Below, one piece after another: positions 1 through 13,510 of a DNA stretch of 41,836 nt. The notes beneath the pieces were generated by a model. It made no database searches. It was not told where the DNA came from and saw only the letters and a program-made list of their open reading frames with translations. The stretch is taken from the NCBI GenBank assembly GCA_964608465.1, contig CAZSNI010000004.1:1-41836 (forward strand). The letters run 5' to 3'. Each line of letters starts with the position of its first letter. The first letter of the stretch is position 1. The stretch is from an uncultured Candidatus Saccharibacteria bacterium. GTDB lineage: Bacteria; Patescibacteriota; Minisyncoccia; Phycocordibacterales; DATDWN01. Both the position numbers and the translations under genes were made by a program.

Positions 1-2610
1 TGCGAATGTTTGTAGTGCTGTCCATGAGTTAGCGTTACCTAGGTTAAGAGAAAGATTTCCTGATACCCCACCCACTAGATTACCTAGTGTTCCAGAGTAT
101 GAAAGTGAAGCTCCTACTGTAGGTGTACTTGTTCCGACTGATTGTAGCGCTCCTGTTCCTGCTCCATATATTAGATTACCTGATGTAAATGATTGTGCTC
201 CTGTACCTCCACCATTAACAGTAAGTGTGCCAGATACAGAAGGTGTAAATGTTAACGCTCCAGATGATGGAACTATTGTTTGTCCAAAGGTTAGACCATT
301 AAATGATGTTGATGTTGTAGAGAATGCAATAGCTGTATCTGAAGTTGTTGAGTAGCCAGAACCTAGAGCTGTTAGAGTTCCACCGCCTGAAATAATTCCA
401 AGAGATGAAGTAGAGGTTAGTGTGTACCCACCAGATGAGTTACCAACCAAAACTTGTCCATATGTTGGCGCAACAGCAAGTCCAGTTCCACCATATATAG
501 TACCTATACTAGTTGTTGCACTAACTACCCCACCATTTACTTGTAGAGGACCGTTTAGTCCAGAGAACAAACTTAGTGTTCCAATATTTGCATTAGTACT
601 AGATGAATATCCAAATGAAGCTAGTGTAGTTGATGTATTAGAGAATGTGTTAAGTGCTGTGAATGTATTAGCAGTGTATGTCTTTGGAATTGTTGTTGAT
701 GCAGCGATAAATGAATTTATAGAAACATTTAGAGATGTAGAATCCAAAGTTAATGCGCCTCCCACATTAGACAATCCTGTACCTAATAGGTTATTAAATG
801 ATGAACCGTTTATAACAAGGTTCGTTGTACTTGCTGTTGTAAATGATCCATATGTTGTTGATGAGAATACAAATGTTTGCAAGTTAGCCCAAGTATTTGC
901 GGTTGTTGTTCCGAATGCAAGACTTATTGTATTTAAAGTATTAACTAGTGGGTATGTGAATGTTAATGCCGATCCTCCACCAGTTACACAACTTCCGTTT
1001 ATCGCAAAACATCCCCCAGTTAGATTAAGACCATTAGCAAATGTAGAAGTAGCTGTTGTAGATGTTACTGAAAGTAGATTTGTAGATATTCCACCGATAA
1101 ATGTAGAAGTCGCTGTCGATGTTGCTAGAAGATTCCCTACAGTTAATTGTGTACCTGTAGCAGTAAGCGCACCCAGTGAATCAGTTGTGATGATTGAATT
1201 TGGAGCTCCTGTGAAAGATGTGCCGTTTATAGTAACAGTTGTGACTCCAGCTAAGTCAGTTGCAGTAACACCCCCACCAACAAAGTTTATTGTTGATCGA
1301 GCCACAAGATCCACCCCTTCATCTTGTATCAAGTTGTATCCACCATTCCCAGTTCCCAAACATACACCATTTACAGAAACACACCCACCAGAAAGTGATA
1401 TTCCTCCAGCAAATGTAGATGTGGCTGTGTTTGTAACTGTAAGGCTAGTTATTGTTCCCCCATTAATAGTAGGGTTATTTATAACTGTATTTGTAAGTTG
1501 GTCTATTCTCTGACTTTGCGCGATTTGTTGATATACATTAGTTATATTTCCTCCAGTTCCGGTTGATAGAGCGTATAGTTTTGAAAGAATCTCATTATTA
1601 AGTTGTTGCAAACTAGTTTGTAAATCTGCAGTTGTTACAGTTCCAGAAACAGGCTTCTCAATTATTCTTTCAACAACTCTTGTTGTATTAACTATTTTTG
1701 TTTGTGGGACATTTGTAGCAACCACTATTGGTTGTGTCTTAACTGGTGTATCGTTTTTAACAATACTGTTTGTGTTAACAATAATTGATGCCGGAGCAAA
1801 CAAACCTTCAAACCAACTGTTAATTTTTCTATAAACGACAATTCCTGAGTGGTCAACTGGATTCAAATTACTTGTAGATTCAACGACTGCTGCGACTTGT
1901 GAACGTGTCCCCTGCATTACATTTCCGACATTTCCGTAAACTGATTTTAGATTATTTGAGTACAGATCCATTACATCAGCAAATGCTGTATAGAAAAATT
2001 TTGGAGTATCAAGTATAACTTTTGTGACACCAGAGATAGATACATTTTTGTCTACAGAATACTCAGCCACAGAATTTCTTGTTTTTGAAAAATCTGCAAA
2101 ACTATTTCTTAGTGAAAATCCTCCTAGAAAAACTAAAACTAGAACCGCAACAGGAACTAGTCTCTTTGAAAAATTCAGATCAAATGCAAATAAAACTTCA
2201 TGCAAAGAATGAGCCTTACTAGTTTTGTTTTGAGATGAAATTACTTCTGATTTAGGAACTTCATTTTTTGTCACAATCACAACCTCAGAAACCACAGGAG
2301 CAACAACTTCTGGTAATGTAACTGTGTCAAATTTTTCCTCTACAACTACCGCATTGACAACTGGAGTTTCTGTGACGATCTTAATATCCTTTTTTGCATA
2401 TAAGTTTTTTGCAAAATCAAAAGTTGTTGGAGTATTCTTGTAAGTTAGAAGTGACTCCTCTTCAACATACCAAACACGACCAACTCTTTTAGATAAAACT
2501 TTTTCACTTCGGCAAAGTTGACCGATGTAATCTTTAGAGTAACCTGTTAACGCAGATGCGTCTTTAACAGAAATGTATTTTTTATTTTCAAAAAATATAT
2601 CCGAAACCAT
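1..2610 (-). CDS. Giant membrane-anchored surface/fibre protein with N-terminal excisionase-like HTH (5' part only; runs off the left edge, >=870 aa)
   Basis: Manual translation from ATG at 2610, frame spot-checked at several points to base 1: MVSDIFFENKKYISVKDASALTGYSKDYIGQLCRSEKVLSKRVGRVWYVEE (HTH_17/Xis-like), hydrophobic RLVPVAVLVLVFLGGFSL, then Thr/Ser/Gly-rich repeats (TATSTF, GGCxxxNGxC, NTWxxLQTF). Absent from the ORF track, presumably because its stop lies outside the window. Confidence 0.9.
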   Translation of the reverse strand, partial: MVSDIFFENKKYISVKDASALTGYSKDYIGQLCRSEKVLSKRVGRVWYVEEESLLTYKNTPTTFDFAKNLYAKKDIKIVTETPVVNAVVVEEKFDTVTLPEVVAPVVSEVVIVTKNEVPKSEVISSQNKTSKAHSLHEVLFAFDLNFSKRLVPVAVLVLVFLGGFSLRNSFADFSKTRNSVAEYSVDKNVSISGVTKVILDTPKFFYTAFADVMDLYSNNLKSVYGNVGNVMQGTRSQVAAVVESTSNLNPVDHSGIVVYRKINSWFEGLFAPASIIVNTNSIVKNDTPVKTQPIVVATNVPQTKIVNTTRVVERIIEKPVSGTVTTADLQTSLQQLNNEILSKLYALSTGTGGNITNVYQQIAQSQRIDQLTNTVINNPTINGGTITSLTVTNTATSTFAGGISLSGGCVSVNGVCLGTGNGGYNLIQDEGVDLVARSTINFVGGGVTATDLAGVTTVTINGTSFTGAPNSIITTDSLGALTATGTQLTVGNLLATSTATSTFIGGISTNLLSVTSTTATSTFANGLNLTGGCFAINGSCVTGGGSALTFTYPLVNTLNTISLAFGTTTANTWANLQTFVFSSTTYGSFTTASTTNLVINGSSFNNLLGTGLSNVGGALTLDSTSLNVSINSFIAASTTIPKTYTANTFTALNTFSNTSTTLASFGYSSSTNANIGTLSLFSGLNGPLQVNGGVVSATTSIGTIYGGTGLAVAPTYGQVLVGNSSGGYTLTSTSSLGIISGGGTLTALGSGYSTTSDTAIAFSTTSTSFNGLTFGQTIVPSSGALTFTPSVSGTLTVNGGGTGAQSFTSGNLIYGAGTGALQSVGTSTPTVGASLSYSGTLGNLVGGVSGNLSLNLGNANSWTALQTFA

Positions 2611-2617
2611 TGATGTA

Positions 2618-2623
2618 ATTATA
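2618..2623 (-). promoter_or_regulatory. -10 box (TATAAT) 7 nt upstream of the giant gene ATG; leaderless-type promoter
   Basis: Minus strand reads TATAAT-tacatca-ATG with no SD. Confidence 0.6.
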
Positions 2624-2654: not shown

Positions 2655-2663
2655 TGTGGATAA
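2655..2663. promoter_or_regulatory. Perfect DnaA box upstream of the giant gene
   Basis: TGTGGATAA (reverse complement TTATCCACA). Confidence 0.5.
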
Positions 2664-2682
2664 ATAAGGCTTTCTCGTTTAA

Positions 2683-2738
2683 CCGAGATTTTTTTGAATC
2701 CGAGAATTTGGTAAATTAATGATCCGAGATTTTGGTAA
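2683..2738. repeat. Three CCGAGA-core direct repeats
   Basis: CCGAGA at 2683, 2700 and 2724; ATCCGAGAATTTGGTAA (2698-2714) and ATCCGAGATTTTGGTAA (2722-2738) match 16/17. Confidence 0.75.
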
Positions 2739-2974
2739 GAAAAAGTAAAAAATATTGGATTCAATTTAATTAGAACTGAATAAAAAATATGGAGTTGAAC
2801 TGGGTAAGGATATGCGGATATTTAGACCAAAATGAGCCAGGACGTATTGATAAAGAGTTGAACGATAGCTTGTTAGTGAAAGGCATAAACTAGATCACTA
2901 CCAAGTTAAACTACAAGCTAGATTCTTAAACTTTAATAAATGTATCTATCTTTTATTATAGTTTACCTATAGGA

Positions 2975-2997
2975 TTATCAATGTTTATCAATGTTTA
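2975..2997. repeat. 10-bp-period direct repeat (TTATCAATGT x2 + TTA); putative operator, copy A
   Basis: Contains GTTTATCAATGTTTA (2983-2997), identical to 3851-3865; overlaps the -35 region of a minus-strand TATAAT at 2955-2960. Confidence 0.7.
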
Positions 2998-2999
2998 AG

Positions 3000-3383
3000 T
3001 TAATTATTATGAGATCGTAAATATTTTCTAATGCTCTTTGGACTAACATCTAGAGTCTTCTGTTTCTTTGATTTTAGTAATACAGATATCTTTTCAGGTG
3101 ACATTCCTTGCTGGTTATACTTCAGTATTAGATTCTGTAGTTTTGAACTCTTGGCCACCTTATTCTGGTTAGCTTTCTTACTCTCCTGTCTCTCTATTGC
3201 TCTTATATGTGCTGTGCCTGAACTGTAGTTTGTCTTGCCTCCATTTCTACTAACTTCCTCACTAATACTTGATATGCCTCGTTCTAGAAGCCTGGCGATC
3301 TCTGTGACACCTTTTCCAACCTTAAGCATCTTCTCTATTAGAAATCTCTCTTCTTTTTTTATGTGTAATTTTTTATTTTTCAT
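3000..3383 (-). CDS. Solo IS30-type N-terminal DNA-binding protein (HTH_38-like), no DDE catalytic domain
   Basis: EERFLIEKMLKVGKGVTEIARLLERGISSISEEVSRNG...Y...A...R and SPEKIS...VSPKSIRKYL match the IS30 transposase N-terminus; ends at 127 aa with TAA. Confidence 0.75.
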   Translation of the reverse strand: MKNKKLHIKKEERFLIEKMLKVGKGVTEIARLLERGISSISEEVSRNGGKTNYSSGTAHIRAIERQESKKANQNKVAKSSKLQNLILKYNQQGMSPEKISVLLKSKKQKTLDVSPKSIRKYLRSHNN

Positions 3384-3811: not shown

Positions 3812-3870
3812 TTGCTATTAATATATAAACCTAATAAAATATGTATATACGTTTATCAATGTTTATAAAA
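3812..3870 (+). promoter_or_regulatory. Sigma70-type promoter (TTGCTA-17 bp-TAAAAT) followed by operator-like repeat GTTTATCAAT GTTTATAAAA (copy B)
   Basis: -35 at 3812-3817, -10 at 3835-3840, repeat at 3851-3870 just before the ATG at 3886. Confidence 0.6.
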
Positions 3871-3885
3871 CTTTAATTCAACAAA

Positions 3886-4128
3886 ATGGCTAATTTATAC
3901 ATAACAATTAAACAGGCTTCTAAGATACTTGGAGTCTCTCCACTCACCCTTCGCAACTGGGATAACAATGGAAAGCTCAAAGCCCATCGCCACCCAATGA
4001 ACAACTATCGGGTTTATAAAATTGAGGATCTAGAAAAAGTAATTCATGAGATCGAAGTTAATGCGGGAATGAGAAAAAGTACCAAAAAGGAAGTTCACAA
4101 ACTCATTGTTAAGCATTTAAGAGATTAA
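3886..4128 (+). CDS. Small MerR-family/excisionase-like (BldC-like) HTH DNA-binding protein, 80 aa
   Basis: YITIKQASKILGVSPLTLRNWDNNGKLKAHRHPMNNYRVYKIEDL is a typical MerR/HTH_17 winged helix. Confidence 0.85.
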   Translation: MANLYITIKQASKILGVSPLTLRNWDNNGKLKAHRHPMNNYRVYKIEDLEKVIHEIEVNAGMRKSTKKEVHKLIVKHLRD

Positions 4129-4133
4129 AGTTC

Positions 4134-4177
4134 AAATACAAAAAAATACCTCCGTCAAGAGGTATTTTTTTGTATTT
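4134..4177. terminator. Bidirectional intrinsic terminator between the HTH gene and gatB
   Basis: Perfect 19-bp inverted repeat AAATACAAAAAAATACCTC-cgtcaa-GAGGTATTTTTTTGTATTT between convergent stops. Confidence 0.85.
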
Positions 4178-11958: not shown

Positions 11959-12176
11959 AGTATTAGTTTATTTATTTTATTTAAAGAATTCTAACTATAT
12001 ATACTGTGTATAACTGGATAACTCTGTAAAACCTATATTTGTAGCAGTATATTTGGATTAGTGCTGTGGATAAATCCATTAAAACAACTTATAAGATTTT
12101 TTTGAAACCTTATAATCAACACCTTTTATATATTTACTAAGAACTTATATACACACTATACACAATCTTTTACACA
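11959..12176. other. oriC candidate: DnaA-box cluster between dnaA and dnaN
   Basis: TGTGTATAA 12005-12013, TGTGGATAA 12065-12073, one-mismatch boxes ATATACACA 12147-12155, CTATACACA 12156-12164, TTTTACACA 12168-12176; AT-rich tract ~11959-12000. Confidence 0.8.
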
Positions 12177-13510
12177 AAGATAGACCTTAATTGGTTTATC
12201 TCTTGAACCAAAATTTCATCGGTTTTTATATCATTTTTTATTTTTTCACATGAATGCATAACTGTAGTGTGGTCTCTACCACCAAGTTTTTCTCCTATGG
12301 CAGGGAAAGATATATTAAAATCCTCCCTAAGTATGTACATTATTATTTGTCTCGGTTTAATAATCTCTTTTTTACGAGTTTTATCGTATATAAGCTGCTC
12401 TTCTATGTTATAAAATTCAGAAACAGTCTTAACGACCTCTTTAATAGAAATAATCTTCTTAGGTTTGGTGTTATTTTTAACAAAACTTTTAACCTCAGCA
12501 AGAGTTAATTCCCTACCCTTTAGTTGTGATTGGCAAGTAATTGAGTTTATTGTGCCTTCTAATTCTCTTATGTTTCCATTTATAGAGTAAGCAAGATATT
12601 CAACCACATCTTTTGCTAAAGGATACTCACTAGCGTTCAATTTAGCCTTAATTATGGCTATTCTAGACTCATTATCTGGTGTAGGTATATCTACAGTCAT
12701 TCCAGCACTAAATCTAGATTTTAAACGGTCCTCAAGGTCTTGTATTAAGGCGGGATGTTTATCTGAAGAAAAGATTATTTGTTTGTTGTTTTCATATAAG
12801 TGGTTAAACAAATGAAAAAGTTCTTCCTGAGTCTTCATTTTTCCAGAGAAAAATTGTACGTCATCCATAATAAGCACATCATATTTCCTGTATTTCTCCT
12901 TAAAGAAGTTTGGTTTGTTTGATTGAATAGCATTTATTAACTCCTGTGAAAATTTTTCAGAAGTAGTGTAAAAAACTTTTCTACCTCCAGAAGATTTCAA
13001 GTAATTCCCCATCGCTTGTATTAGGTGAGTTTTTCCATGCCCAGTTCCTCCATATATAAATAAAGGGTTATAGACAATTCCAGGCTTCTTTATTACCGCT
13101 TGAGATGCTGCGTAAGCGAACTCATTGAATGGCCCAACAACAAAAGTATCAAAGGTATACCTCGGGTTTAAGTTATCTTCTTTGTTTATGTATGTATCTG
13201 CTATTGGTAGTTCGCGCGTAATTGGTTGAGGTTTTTCTGAGAAGGCCTTTTCCCTCATCTCCTCTTTGGAGATTACATAGTTAAGTGATTGAACGTTACT
13301 AGACAGGTTTCTGAGAGTTTTAAGTATGGCGTTATGGAATTTACTAGATAACCAGTCTTGAACGAAAGTGTTTGGAACCCCCAAATGAACAGTTCCATTT
13401 TCTTGCTTAACAATAAACGTATCTTTGAACCAAGTGTTGAAGTTTGGTTTAGATAAAGTTAATTCCATCTCAACCAAAACACCATCCCAAAGTTTTTTAT
13501 TGTCCATCAT
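12170..13510 (-). CDS. dnaA: Chromosomal replication initiator DnaA
   Basis: LNPRYTFDTFVVG, YNPLFIYGGTGHGKTHL, DVLIMDDVQF, NIRELEG, GGRDHTTVMH. Confidence 0.98.
   Translation of the reverse strand: MMDNKKLWDGVLVEMELTLSKPNFNTWFKDTFIVKQENGTVHLGVPNTFVQDWLSSKFHNAILKTLRNLSSNVQSLNYVISKEEMREKAFSEKPQPITRELPIADTYINKEDNLNPRYTFDTFVVGPFNEFAYAASQAVIKKPGIVYNPLFIYGGTGHGKTHLIQAMGNYLKSSGGRKVFYTTSEKFSQELINAIQSNKPNFFKEKYRKYDVLIMDDVQFFSGKMKTQEELFHLFNHLYENNKQIIFSSDKHPALIQDLEDRLKSRFSAGMTVDIPTPDNESRIAIIKAKLNASEYPLAKDVVEYLAYSINGNIRELEGTINSITCQSQLKGRELTLAEVKSFVKNNTKPKKIISIKEVVKTVSEFYNIEEQLIYDKTRKKEIIKPRQIIMYILREDFNISFPAIGEKLGGRDHTTVMHSCEKIKNDIKTDEILVQEINQLRSIFV

Follow-up and report, generated by a model that had tools for sequence, protein, structure and literature searches.

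We describe here a giant gene, the 5' part of which occupies positions 1 to 2610 on the minus strand of the analysed window (the whole stretch of 41,836 nucleotides, contig C4:1-41836 of assembly GCA_964608465.1). Its product, P0001, is modelled as a membrane-tethered regulator of the DNA-binding type, which would combine an excisionase-type helix-turn-helix (HTH) fold with a giant outer fibre, and belongs to a large unnamed family of the candidate phyla radiation (CPR). Our best explanation as a whole, to which we give a probability of about 0.5, is a type II membrane fibre protein whose HTH would sit on ATCTCGGAT repeats in its own promoter, beside a TTATCCACA box that DnaA would read, and whose fibre would serve contact with a host or surface. 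Judging from the sequences compared, the fibre probably controls its own gene; of the two hypothetical roles, autoregulation is better supported than anchoring of the chromosome.

A giant gene cut by the contig end

The source genome comprises 649 kb in 38 contigs, with a G+C content of about 38%, and contig C4 begins at window base 1. The minus strand has an open frame that begins at 2649 (TTG) or 2610 (ATG) and continues to base 1 and off the contig. We favoured the ATG at 2610 because the N-termini of the orthologues (M-x-S-[DE]-[IL]-F-F-[ED]-N-K-K-Y) fit this start, from which the frame spans 870 codons with no internal stops. When the genomes were searched with the HTH profile, the site of the giant gene was recovered at an E-value of 8e-33, which is not a chance match. 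Positions 1-2610 are the 5' part of a real gene cut by the contig end, and this gene is the largest in the 0.65-Mb genome. A preliminary description had reported here an overlooked open frame with an HTH, a Val/Glu-rich linker, one hydrophobic helix and a Thr/Ser/Gly-rich region, and all four elements are present where it placed them:

1..2610, minus strand: giant HTH-membrane-fibre gene, 5' part, 870 codons, running off the contig start (open frame, orthologue N-termini)
2434..2598, minus strand: excisionase/MerR-type winged HTH, aa 5-59 (HTH_17 below cut-off, AlphaFold2 [AF2], Foldseek, family profile)
2167..2433, minus strand: Val/Glu/Lys-rich disordered cytoplasmic linker, aa 60-148, ending in the conserved pre-membrane motif HEvLFafDlNFSKr (composition, predicted local distance difference test [pLDDT] about 50, alignment A3)
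2110..2166, minus strand: single transmembrane helix KRLVPVAVLVLVFLGGFSL, aa 149-167, N-terminus inside (hydropathy, model helix 152-187, family charge bias)
1786..2109, minus strand: extracellular juxtamembrane helices and conserved LNPVDHSGvVVYxxVNSWF motif, aa 168-275 (alignment A3)
1456..1713, minus strand: conserved neck VIERIIEK...LQxLNNxI...QQIAQSQRIDQLTNT, aa 300-385 (alignment A3, model helix 327-339)
1..1455, minus strand: fibre rich in Thr, Gly and Ser, in which ATSTF...GGCxxxNGxC modules recur, with Cys pairs at 410/417 and 534/541, aa 386-870 (composition; modules common to complete orthologues)

Complete orthologues of the giant measure 1,689 to 4,124 aa. The only other open fibre-like frame at a contig end of this genome is an open-ended plus-strand frame of 1,491 aa on contig C7 (G000 C7:1-4476, L001). 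Its first residues fall within a copy of the GGCxxxNGxC module, which is also repeated in the window part. The window part aligns to residues 3-824 of the complete 4,124-aa orthologue and the C7 frame to residues 3219-3811, each also matching repeated modules, further along and earlier, respectively. Since this is the sole other candidate, starts in the shared module and maps in order onto one complete orthologue, the C7 frame is probably the remainder of the giant gene; if the join is right, the protein exceeds 2,360 aa. No synteny was found between the genes downstream of the C7 frame and those downstream of complete orthologues. In many assemblies, giant genes are broken by contig ends within their repeated modules. 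The last part of the C7 frame comprises, in this order, a Gly_rich_2 domain, a conserved ADLAEIY...GD-type domain and two near-identical Pro/Glu/Thr-rich C-terminal repeats.

A mis-assembled or mis-started frame could in principle have joined an unrelated small HTH gene to a fibre gene, and the incompleteness of the gene at the contig end would agree with such an artefact. Yet the same continuous frame, uninterrupted by stops, recurs in dozens of independent assemblies, with complete versions in the above size range. The many independent complete orthologues effectively refute this explanation, to which we attach a negligible probability.

Fold and topology of the protein

The sole Pfam match of P0001 is HTH_17 (aa 12-59, profile positions 1-48 of 51, E 0.0016); in PHROGs it matches 'excisionase' (E 0.0025), while a search of NCBIfam gave no match. 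Other family members score above the HTH_17 cut-off (P0020 at 41.7 bits, P0011 at 32.6 and P0094 at 28.2), and P0020 also passes TIGR01764 'excise' at 42.1 bits. In an AF2 model of P0001 made with 38 orthologues, aa 5-56 adopt a beta-beta-alpha-alpha-beta-beta-alpha order with a two-stranded wing and a closing helix (pLDDT about 93, the value also given for aa 11-50), followed by a disordered linker and a long helix across the membrane segment. The best structural match of the domain in Foldseek is Xis of mycobacteriophage Pukovnik (4j2n; template modelling [TM] score 0.73, root-mean-square deviation [rmsd] 2.0), then, among others, TraN of pIP501 and RdfS. A relative with two HTH domains, modelled with a pLDDT of about 95 per domain, has TraN as its best match (E 1.5e-3), followed by RacA-DNA, BldC-DNA, Xis and RdfS. 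The nearest solved structures of both proteins are all MerR-superfamily DNA binders. As modelled, the N-terminal fold is an excisionase/MerR-type winged HTH that superposes on solved members, so that the expectation of a winged HTH at the N-terminus is borne out by AF2 and Foldseek.

The linker (aa 63-145) consists of 20% Val, 11% Lys and 10% Glu, and aa 336-870 of 19% Thr, 15% Gly and 13% Ser. P0001 has no N-terminal hydrophobic stretch or signal peptide. Among 138 family members, the 15 residues before the helix hold on average 3.5 Lys+Arg versus 1.4 in the 15 residues after it, the count being greater before the helix in 113 members and greater after it in 10. The HTH domains carry a net charge of +2.7 to +4.6, and closely spaced cysteine pairs are found solely after the membrane helix. 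From the charge bias we infer a type II membrane protein (N-in, C-out) with a cytoplasmic HTH; the earlier view that the N-terminus is neither extracellular nor a cleaved signal agrees with this bias and with the absent signal peptide.

As for the outer part, its composition and paired cysteines, together with a PHROG match of the tail type and domains of the tail-spike type in homologues, suggest that the fibre mediates contact with a host or a surface. The C7 frame matches Gly_rich_2 in Pfam and phrog_863 'tail fiber assembly' (category tail, E 4e-6), and a PDB sequence search with it gave no match. Peptidase_S74 (PF13884) was absent from the window part and the C7 frame in the Pfam search; it is present in the homologue P0011 (47.8 bits), and one 3,878-aa member carries Peptidase_S74 and a surface Ig-like domain near its far end.

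These features bear on a further explanation, in which a pull on the fibre, or its binding, would lead to a cut close to the membrane, so that the HTH, once released, could work elsewhere as a transcription factor, by a logic like that of regulated intramembrane proteolysis or of MYRF, where cleavage releases a DNA-binding trimer. Conserved motifs both before the helix (HE.LF..D.NFSKK) and after it would fit, as would the homologue that combines an HTH, a membrane helix and the self-cleaving Peptidase_S74 domain. According to excerpts of PMC3828593 and PMC8094900, the eukaryotic MYRF/MrfA proteins share this parts list, with a DNA-binding domain, a membrane helix and a trimerising domain of the Peptidase_S74 type. 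In the P0001 family, in contrast, the domain order and the membrane side differ, and Peptidase_S74, where present, lies at the distal outer end (aa 3578-3635 of 3878 in the homologue), so its cleavage would not free the HTH. The domain is missing from the window part and the C7 frame, and no other target sites are evident in the genome. We therefore consider a contact-released factor very improbable.

A large unnamed protein family

With aa 1-340 of P0001 as query, a full HMMER scan recovered 4,103 cluster representatives (E<=1e-3), of which 715 reached E<=1e-10. Among the best 150 of the 4,103 clusters, all have one or two N-terminal HTH copies, and a hydropathy scan placed one hydrophobic helix in 131, two in 1 and none in 18 (mostly short fragments); the tail after the helix varies in these 150 between about 40 and more than 4,000 residues (median 54). 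The HTH is the best-conserved region of the homologues, the tail being variable; the idea that homologues in the CPR would retain the HTH is thus well founded, and the mention of similar giant proteins in Parcubacteria, also part of the preliminary description, proved correct.

Y20, R30 and W43 (domain numbering) are invariant in alignment A1 of 34 domains, and alignment A3 of 38 sequences has nine invariant columns, including Y24, D27, Y28, Q31, L32 and R34. A motif characteristic of the family, Y-x-x-D-Y-I-G-Q-L-x-R, covers the second helix (aa 26-34) and the residues directly preceding it. When a profile was built from the outer LNPVDHSGvVVYxxVNSWF motif, it matched 25 listed long or truncated homologues and 0 of the two-HTH proteins of about 300-360 aa; since this juxtamembrane profile misses them, the tails of the short proteins are not demonstrably homologous to that of the giant.

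The HTH domain occurs in 22 of the 24 genus-mates (in exactly one copy in 18 of those 22), in 10 of the 17 genera searched among relatives in the window's order, and in 45 of 301 genomes sampled across the phylum. Family loci with a named organism are nearly all from Patescibacteria (Zambryskibacteria, Paceibacterota, Nomurabacteria, Kaiserbacteria, Minisyncoccia), and one short contig is labelled Nitrospira. All members are annotated 'hypothetical protein' at the source, and no description of the HTH-membrane family was found in the literature searched. By sequence comparison, the HTH together with its membrane helix is what marks out this large and unnamed family of Patescibacteria.

A repeat motif upstream of the gene

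Two elements stand out in the promoter of the giant gene:

2618..2623, minus strand: TATAAT -10 box, 7 nt before the ATG (sequence; same position in most of 50 orthologous promoters)
2673..2730, minus strand: operator-like array of ATCTCGGAT (2722-2730), TTCTCGGAT (2698-2706) and ATCTCGGTT (2681-2689) (sequence, orthologous promoters)

In most orthologous loci, 7-8 nt separate the end of the -10 box from the ATG, which suggests a leaderless or near-leaderless mRNA. The three copies of the array, within 2681-2730, fit ATCTCGG[AT]T, and the ATCTCGGTT copy pairs with ACGAGA (2673-2678) as an imperfect palindrome. In the orthologous promoters (n=50), CCGAGA is found at -68 or -69, often in TCTCGG-N4-CCGAGA palindromes or in 3-4 direct repeats with 10-bp spacing; the repeat consensus is AATCTCGGATA, and operator variants such as ATCTCGGAT and ATATCGGAT occur among the loci. 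In the whole genome, the array is the sole cluster among 18 matches to the motif.

We found that the motif is not confined to this gene order. The 150 nt upstream of 29 family members from other families of the phylum and other genomic contexts were scanned for the hexamers TCGGAT/ATCCGA/CTCGGA/TCCGAG. At least one core hexamer was present at 16 of the 29 loci against 7.3% of background windows (p 2e-11), and at least two at 13 of 29 against 1.4% (p 5e-17), both statistics ignoring shared ancestry. Examples upstream of distant members are ATATCGGATAACCGATATCGGAT, TATCCGATAACCCTATCGGATA and TCCGAGAAAACTCGGA, and the promoters of the short genes encoding two HTH domains and a membrane helix (2xHTH-membrane genes) contain the same elements. 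A homologue of the 80-aa MerR-type neighbour of the giant (MerR80, see below) lies near only 2 of 32 distant loci. The repeat motif thus follows the gene family through the phylum, mostly where MerR80 is absent. With the motif following the family, MerR80 mostly absent and a single cluster in the genome, the simplest reading is that the near-invariant recognition helix of the family itself would read the motif.

The DnaA-type box and the distance to the origin

Between the array and the -10 box lies a third element:

2655..2663, minus strand: TTATCCACA box (DnaA-box consensus), with TATCCACA starting at -52 from the ATG (orthologous promoters)

In the majority of the 50 orthologous promoters, TATCCACA begins between -51 and -54, and the 7-mers TATCCAC and ATCCACA were found in 38 of the 50 versus 2 expected. 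The exact 9-mer TTATCCACA stands 28-43 nt upstream of a -10 box before genes for ribonucleotide reductase (nrd), mraZ, a pilin of the type IV secretion system, a type IV pilin and the giant fibre; one more copy, with no -10 box flagged, lies upstream of dnaN. Its exact copies are the following:

window 2655-2663 and 12065-12073; G000 C1:45103, C9:17733, C11:10229 and C37:1552: TTATCCACA

dnaA is located at 12170-13510, and five DnaA-box-like sites (TTWTNCACA) fall within 250 bp at 12005-12250, in and around the dnaA-dnaN spacer; the window contains 14 such sites in total versus 6.5 expected. The cluster is probably oriC or a part of it, and the start codon of the giant gene is about 9.4 kb away, in accordance with the distance of about 10 kb from oriC proposed earlier. 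The TTATCCACA box was also considered as the target of the fibre's HTH and ranked below DnaA as reader, since copies of this 9-mer stand in the oriC-like cluster and also ahead of nrd, dnaN and mraZ. Because of these occurrences, and because the box is not kept with the family outside the order, DnaA is the more likely reader of the copy at -52, and would thereby tie the giant gene to a replication and division regulon.

The proximity of the origin raises the question of a chromosome tether, in which the HTH would hold origin-proximal DNA at the membrane beneath the fibre, with gene control being secondary. The model for such a role is RacA of Bacillus subtilis, a soluble protein with a MerR-like winged HTH that anchors origin-proximal DNA to the envelope via DivIVA and uses many sites. 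The position of the gene, 9.4 kb from the DnaA-box cluster, is conserved in the order, and the two-HTH relative matches RacA-DNA structures (TM 0.58-0.61). In addition, the coupled transcription, translation and membrane insertion of so long a gene would by itself be expected to hold the locus at the membrane. However, P0001 has a covalent membrane anchor and one motif cluster in the genome, at its own promoter, whereas RacA is soluble and has many sites around the origin. Outside the order, the family occurs in other contexts, with no match to dnaA, dnaN, obg or gatB within about 9 kb of its loci, and no coiled-coil or DivIVA-type partner is evident. The single cluster and the missing origin linkage weaken a pure origin tether and make it unlikely, while a single tether close to the origin would still be compatible with them.

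Comparison with known DNA-binding and membrane proteins

The excisionase-type winged HTH fold of P0001 is shared with TraN (ORF14) of pIP501 and AM32 of pAMbeta1 (PDB 4p0z, 4pm3, 4p0y, 6g1t). TraN is the best PDB sequence match (E 0.04) and a close structural match to the HTH of P0001 (27% identity, rmsd 2.5), and its tandem arrangement resembles that of the short two-HTH family members. Unlike P0001, which has a single HTH, TraN has two packed halves and neither a membrane helix nor an outer domain; the model of the two-HTH relative shows a packing of the domains that differs from that of TraN (rmsd about 11 Å over both). An excerpt of PMC6158623 presents TraN as a repressor that binds double-stranded DNA, and an excerpt of PMC10877727 presents it as a small cytosolic protein.

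In fold and size, the HTH of P0001 also corresponds to excisionases, or recombination directionality factors (HTH_17, TIGR01764; Pukovnik Xis 4j2n, RdfS 8dgl), and to BldC (6ama), the latter superposing on the two-HTH relative with a TM score of 0.73-0.77. Proteins of the excisionase/BldC type bind head-to-tail on direct repeats. An oligomerising binding of this kind would fit the 10-bp-phased CCGAGA repeats of some loci, and an excerpt of PMC11963761 indicates that these proteins often oligomerise on DNA. Yet excisionases and BldC are small and soluble, whereas the P0001 locus has no integrase partner or mobile element, and the recognition-helix motif Y-x-x-D-Y-I-G-Q-L-x-R is specific to the P0001 family.

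In its layout, with the topology as deduced from the charge bias, P0001 corresponds to ToxR, CadC and TcpP, which join a DNA-binding domain at the cytoplasmic N-terminus to an outer domain through one membrane helix, and bind DNA at the membrane. In turn, these regulators combine a winged helix of the OmpR/PhoB type with a compact periplasmic sensor, whereas P0001 has a MerR/excisionase-type domain and a fibre of thousands of residues; no OmpR/PhoB-type (Trans_reg_C) winged helix was found in P0001, whose only Pfam match is the one given above.

Gene neighbourhood and relatives at the locus

The gene order dnaN-PBP-tyrS-obg-gatB-(MerR80)-giant (PBP, penicillin-binding protein) is kept in most of 58 loci. 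Two small genes for putative DNA-binding proteins lie next to the giant:

3000..3383, minus strand: 127-aa HTH_38 (IS30-type) gene with HTH_38 as its only domain (Pfam 32.1 bits; found between MerR80 and the giant in some members of the genus only)
3886..4128, plus strand: divergent 80-aa MerR/HTH_17 gene, MerR80 (Pfam MerR 42.8 bits; beside the giant in most order-level loci)

A repeat, TTATCAATGTTTATCAATGTTTA, is situated at 2968-3003, at the 3' end of the HTH_38 gene, and an 81%-identical copy at 3846-3881, just before the start of MerR80. Directly after the MerR80 stop, at 4134-4177, there is a perfect, AT-rich 19-nt inverted repeat with a 6-nt loop; it probably serves as a terminator, perhaps also for the convergent gatB.

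In Kaiserbacteria-type contigs, a short 2xHTH-membrane gene follows gatB in 8 of 8 cases, and a giant follows the short gene on the same strand in 7 of 8, reaching 8,485 aa. The nearby giant has its own single N-terminal HTH in 7 of the 8 contigs, with a hydrophobic stretch next to it where inspected (L109, L116). Seven further loci have a second gene with a single N-terminal HTH downstream of the short gene, and P0001 aligns to the Kaiserbacteria-type giants via aa 1-418 or aa 1-559 (E about 1e-30). From this recurrence and these alignments, the ancestral locus had gatB, a short 2xHTH-membrane gene and an HTH-membrane-giant gene, and of the latter two the window's genus has kept the giant only. 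A reading of the short two-HTH genes as positional orthologues of the giant is rejected because an HTH giant follows the short gene, which makes the two adjacent paralogues.

Among the largest members is the gene at L109:10410-18939 (GCA_013565675.1, JACCDV011310181.1), called at 8,485 aa and starting with an HTH and a membrane helix; it is located after a 312-aa two-HTH membrane gene, itself after secA-gatB. One Kaiserbacteria-type contig has an additional HTH_17 gene, of 289 aa, which lies on the opposite strand between secA and gatB (L113:6330-7199, minus strand), so the HTH module is able to occur three times per locus. The giant at L110:10206-18425 has a C-terminal domain 46% identical to aa 884-1012 of the C7 frame and may be regarded as a natural 'HTH-less' control.

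Points against autoregulation, and a possible protein-docking role

Several observations weigh against the reading of P0001 as a membrane fibre that controls its own promoter. The gene is incomplete in the assembly. The HTH_17 score of P0001 (19.1 bits) is below the 27-bit cut-off, and the Foldseek E-values of its HTH are weak (0.03), which we ascribe to the domain having only about 50 residues. The array copies are irregularly spaced, at 24 and 17 nt, and the motif counts at distant loci, not corrected for shared ancestry, include some near-duplicate loci. A trans-acting factor could read the motif instead, MerR80 or the HTH_38 proteins being candidates within the order. The giant of the remaining Kaiserbacteria-type contig (L110) has a classical signal peptide in place of the HTH and membrane helix, so the fibre does not strictly need this module. 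Finally, MreB is encoded in the genome (C24:2344-3324, 453 bits) while RodZ is undetectable, and MreB is found in 43 of 45 family-positive genomes versus 175 of 256 others (Fisher p 4e-5, phylogeny ignored).

The last point leads to an alternative suggested by analogy with RodZ, which has a cytoplasmic Xre-type HTH (HTH_25) that binds MreB, and a RodZ_C domain. The HTH of P0001 could likewise be a protein-docking module that couples the fibre, or the small outer tail of the short proteins, to the cytoskeleton or another cytoplasmic partner. The layout of the family is RodZ-like, with an HTH, a basic juxtamembrane stretch, one membrane helix and an outer domain. Yet the HTH_25 and RodZ_C domains of RodZ have no counterpart in P0001, and neither was found elsewhere in this genome, small weak HTH_25-like matches being present in 14 of 41 relatives. 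The fold class is MerR/excisionase-type and not Xre-type, the close structural matches are all DNA binders, the HTH domains are net positive, the promoter motif varies together with the family, and the family itself is missing from most MreB-positive genomes. With MreB present, RodZ undetected and family-positive genomes almost all MreB-positive, we keep a RodZ-like protein-binding role as a candidate, though a rather unlikely one. RodZ (RodZ_C, HTH_25) is likewise undetectable in most genus-mates.

Proposed mechanism and significance

If the fibre controls its own gene, the HTH would bind the repeats of the ATCTCGGAT type, which lie 70-120 bp ahead of the leaderless start of its gene. The HTH would be the first part translated, beside its own promoter; because a leaderless mRNA would yield the HTH first and next to the promoter, it could act in cis while 7-12 kb of the gene were still being transcribed. 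Insertion of the membrane helix would then hold the locus, 9.4 kb from oriC, at the membrane, and the binding would limit the output of the cell's most expensive protein.

A more far-reaching, speculative and improbable version regards a trimeric fibre, as the tail-spike-type domains in homologues would suggest, as a direct physical wire from the surface to the chromosome. Three HTHs on flexible 90-residue linkers would lie over the three phased ATCTCGGAT repeats, and host contact or tension would alter their occupancy, switching fibre synthesis and pinning the origin region under the site of attachment with no kinase, second messenger or soluble factor involved; the short 2xHTH-membrane paralogue, where kept, would set the threshold.

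CPR bacteria (Patescibacteria) are thought to live attached to host cells and have very small genomes with few recognisable regulators. Here, the largest gene of such a genome carries a predicted DNA-binding fold on the cytoplasmic side of the membrane, and the same module defines thousands of unnamed proteins. If the HTH binds the motif, this would be a minimal coupling of the cell surface to gene expression, a membrane-tethered autoregulation of a giant adhesin, and motif and domain together would offer an experimental handle in organisms that are almost impossible to manipulate genetically. The shared TTATCCACA element, in turn, hints at DnaA as a global regulator that may join replication, division and surface appendages in reduced genomes.

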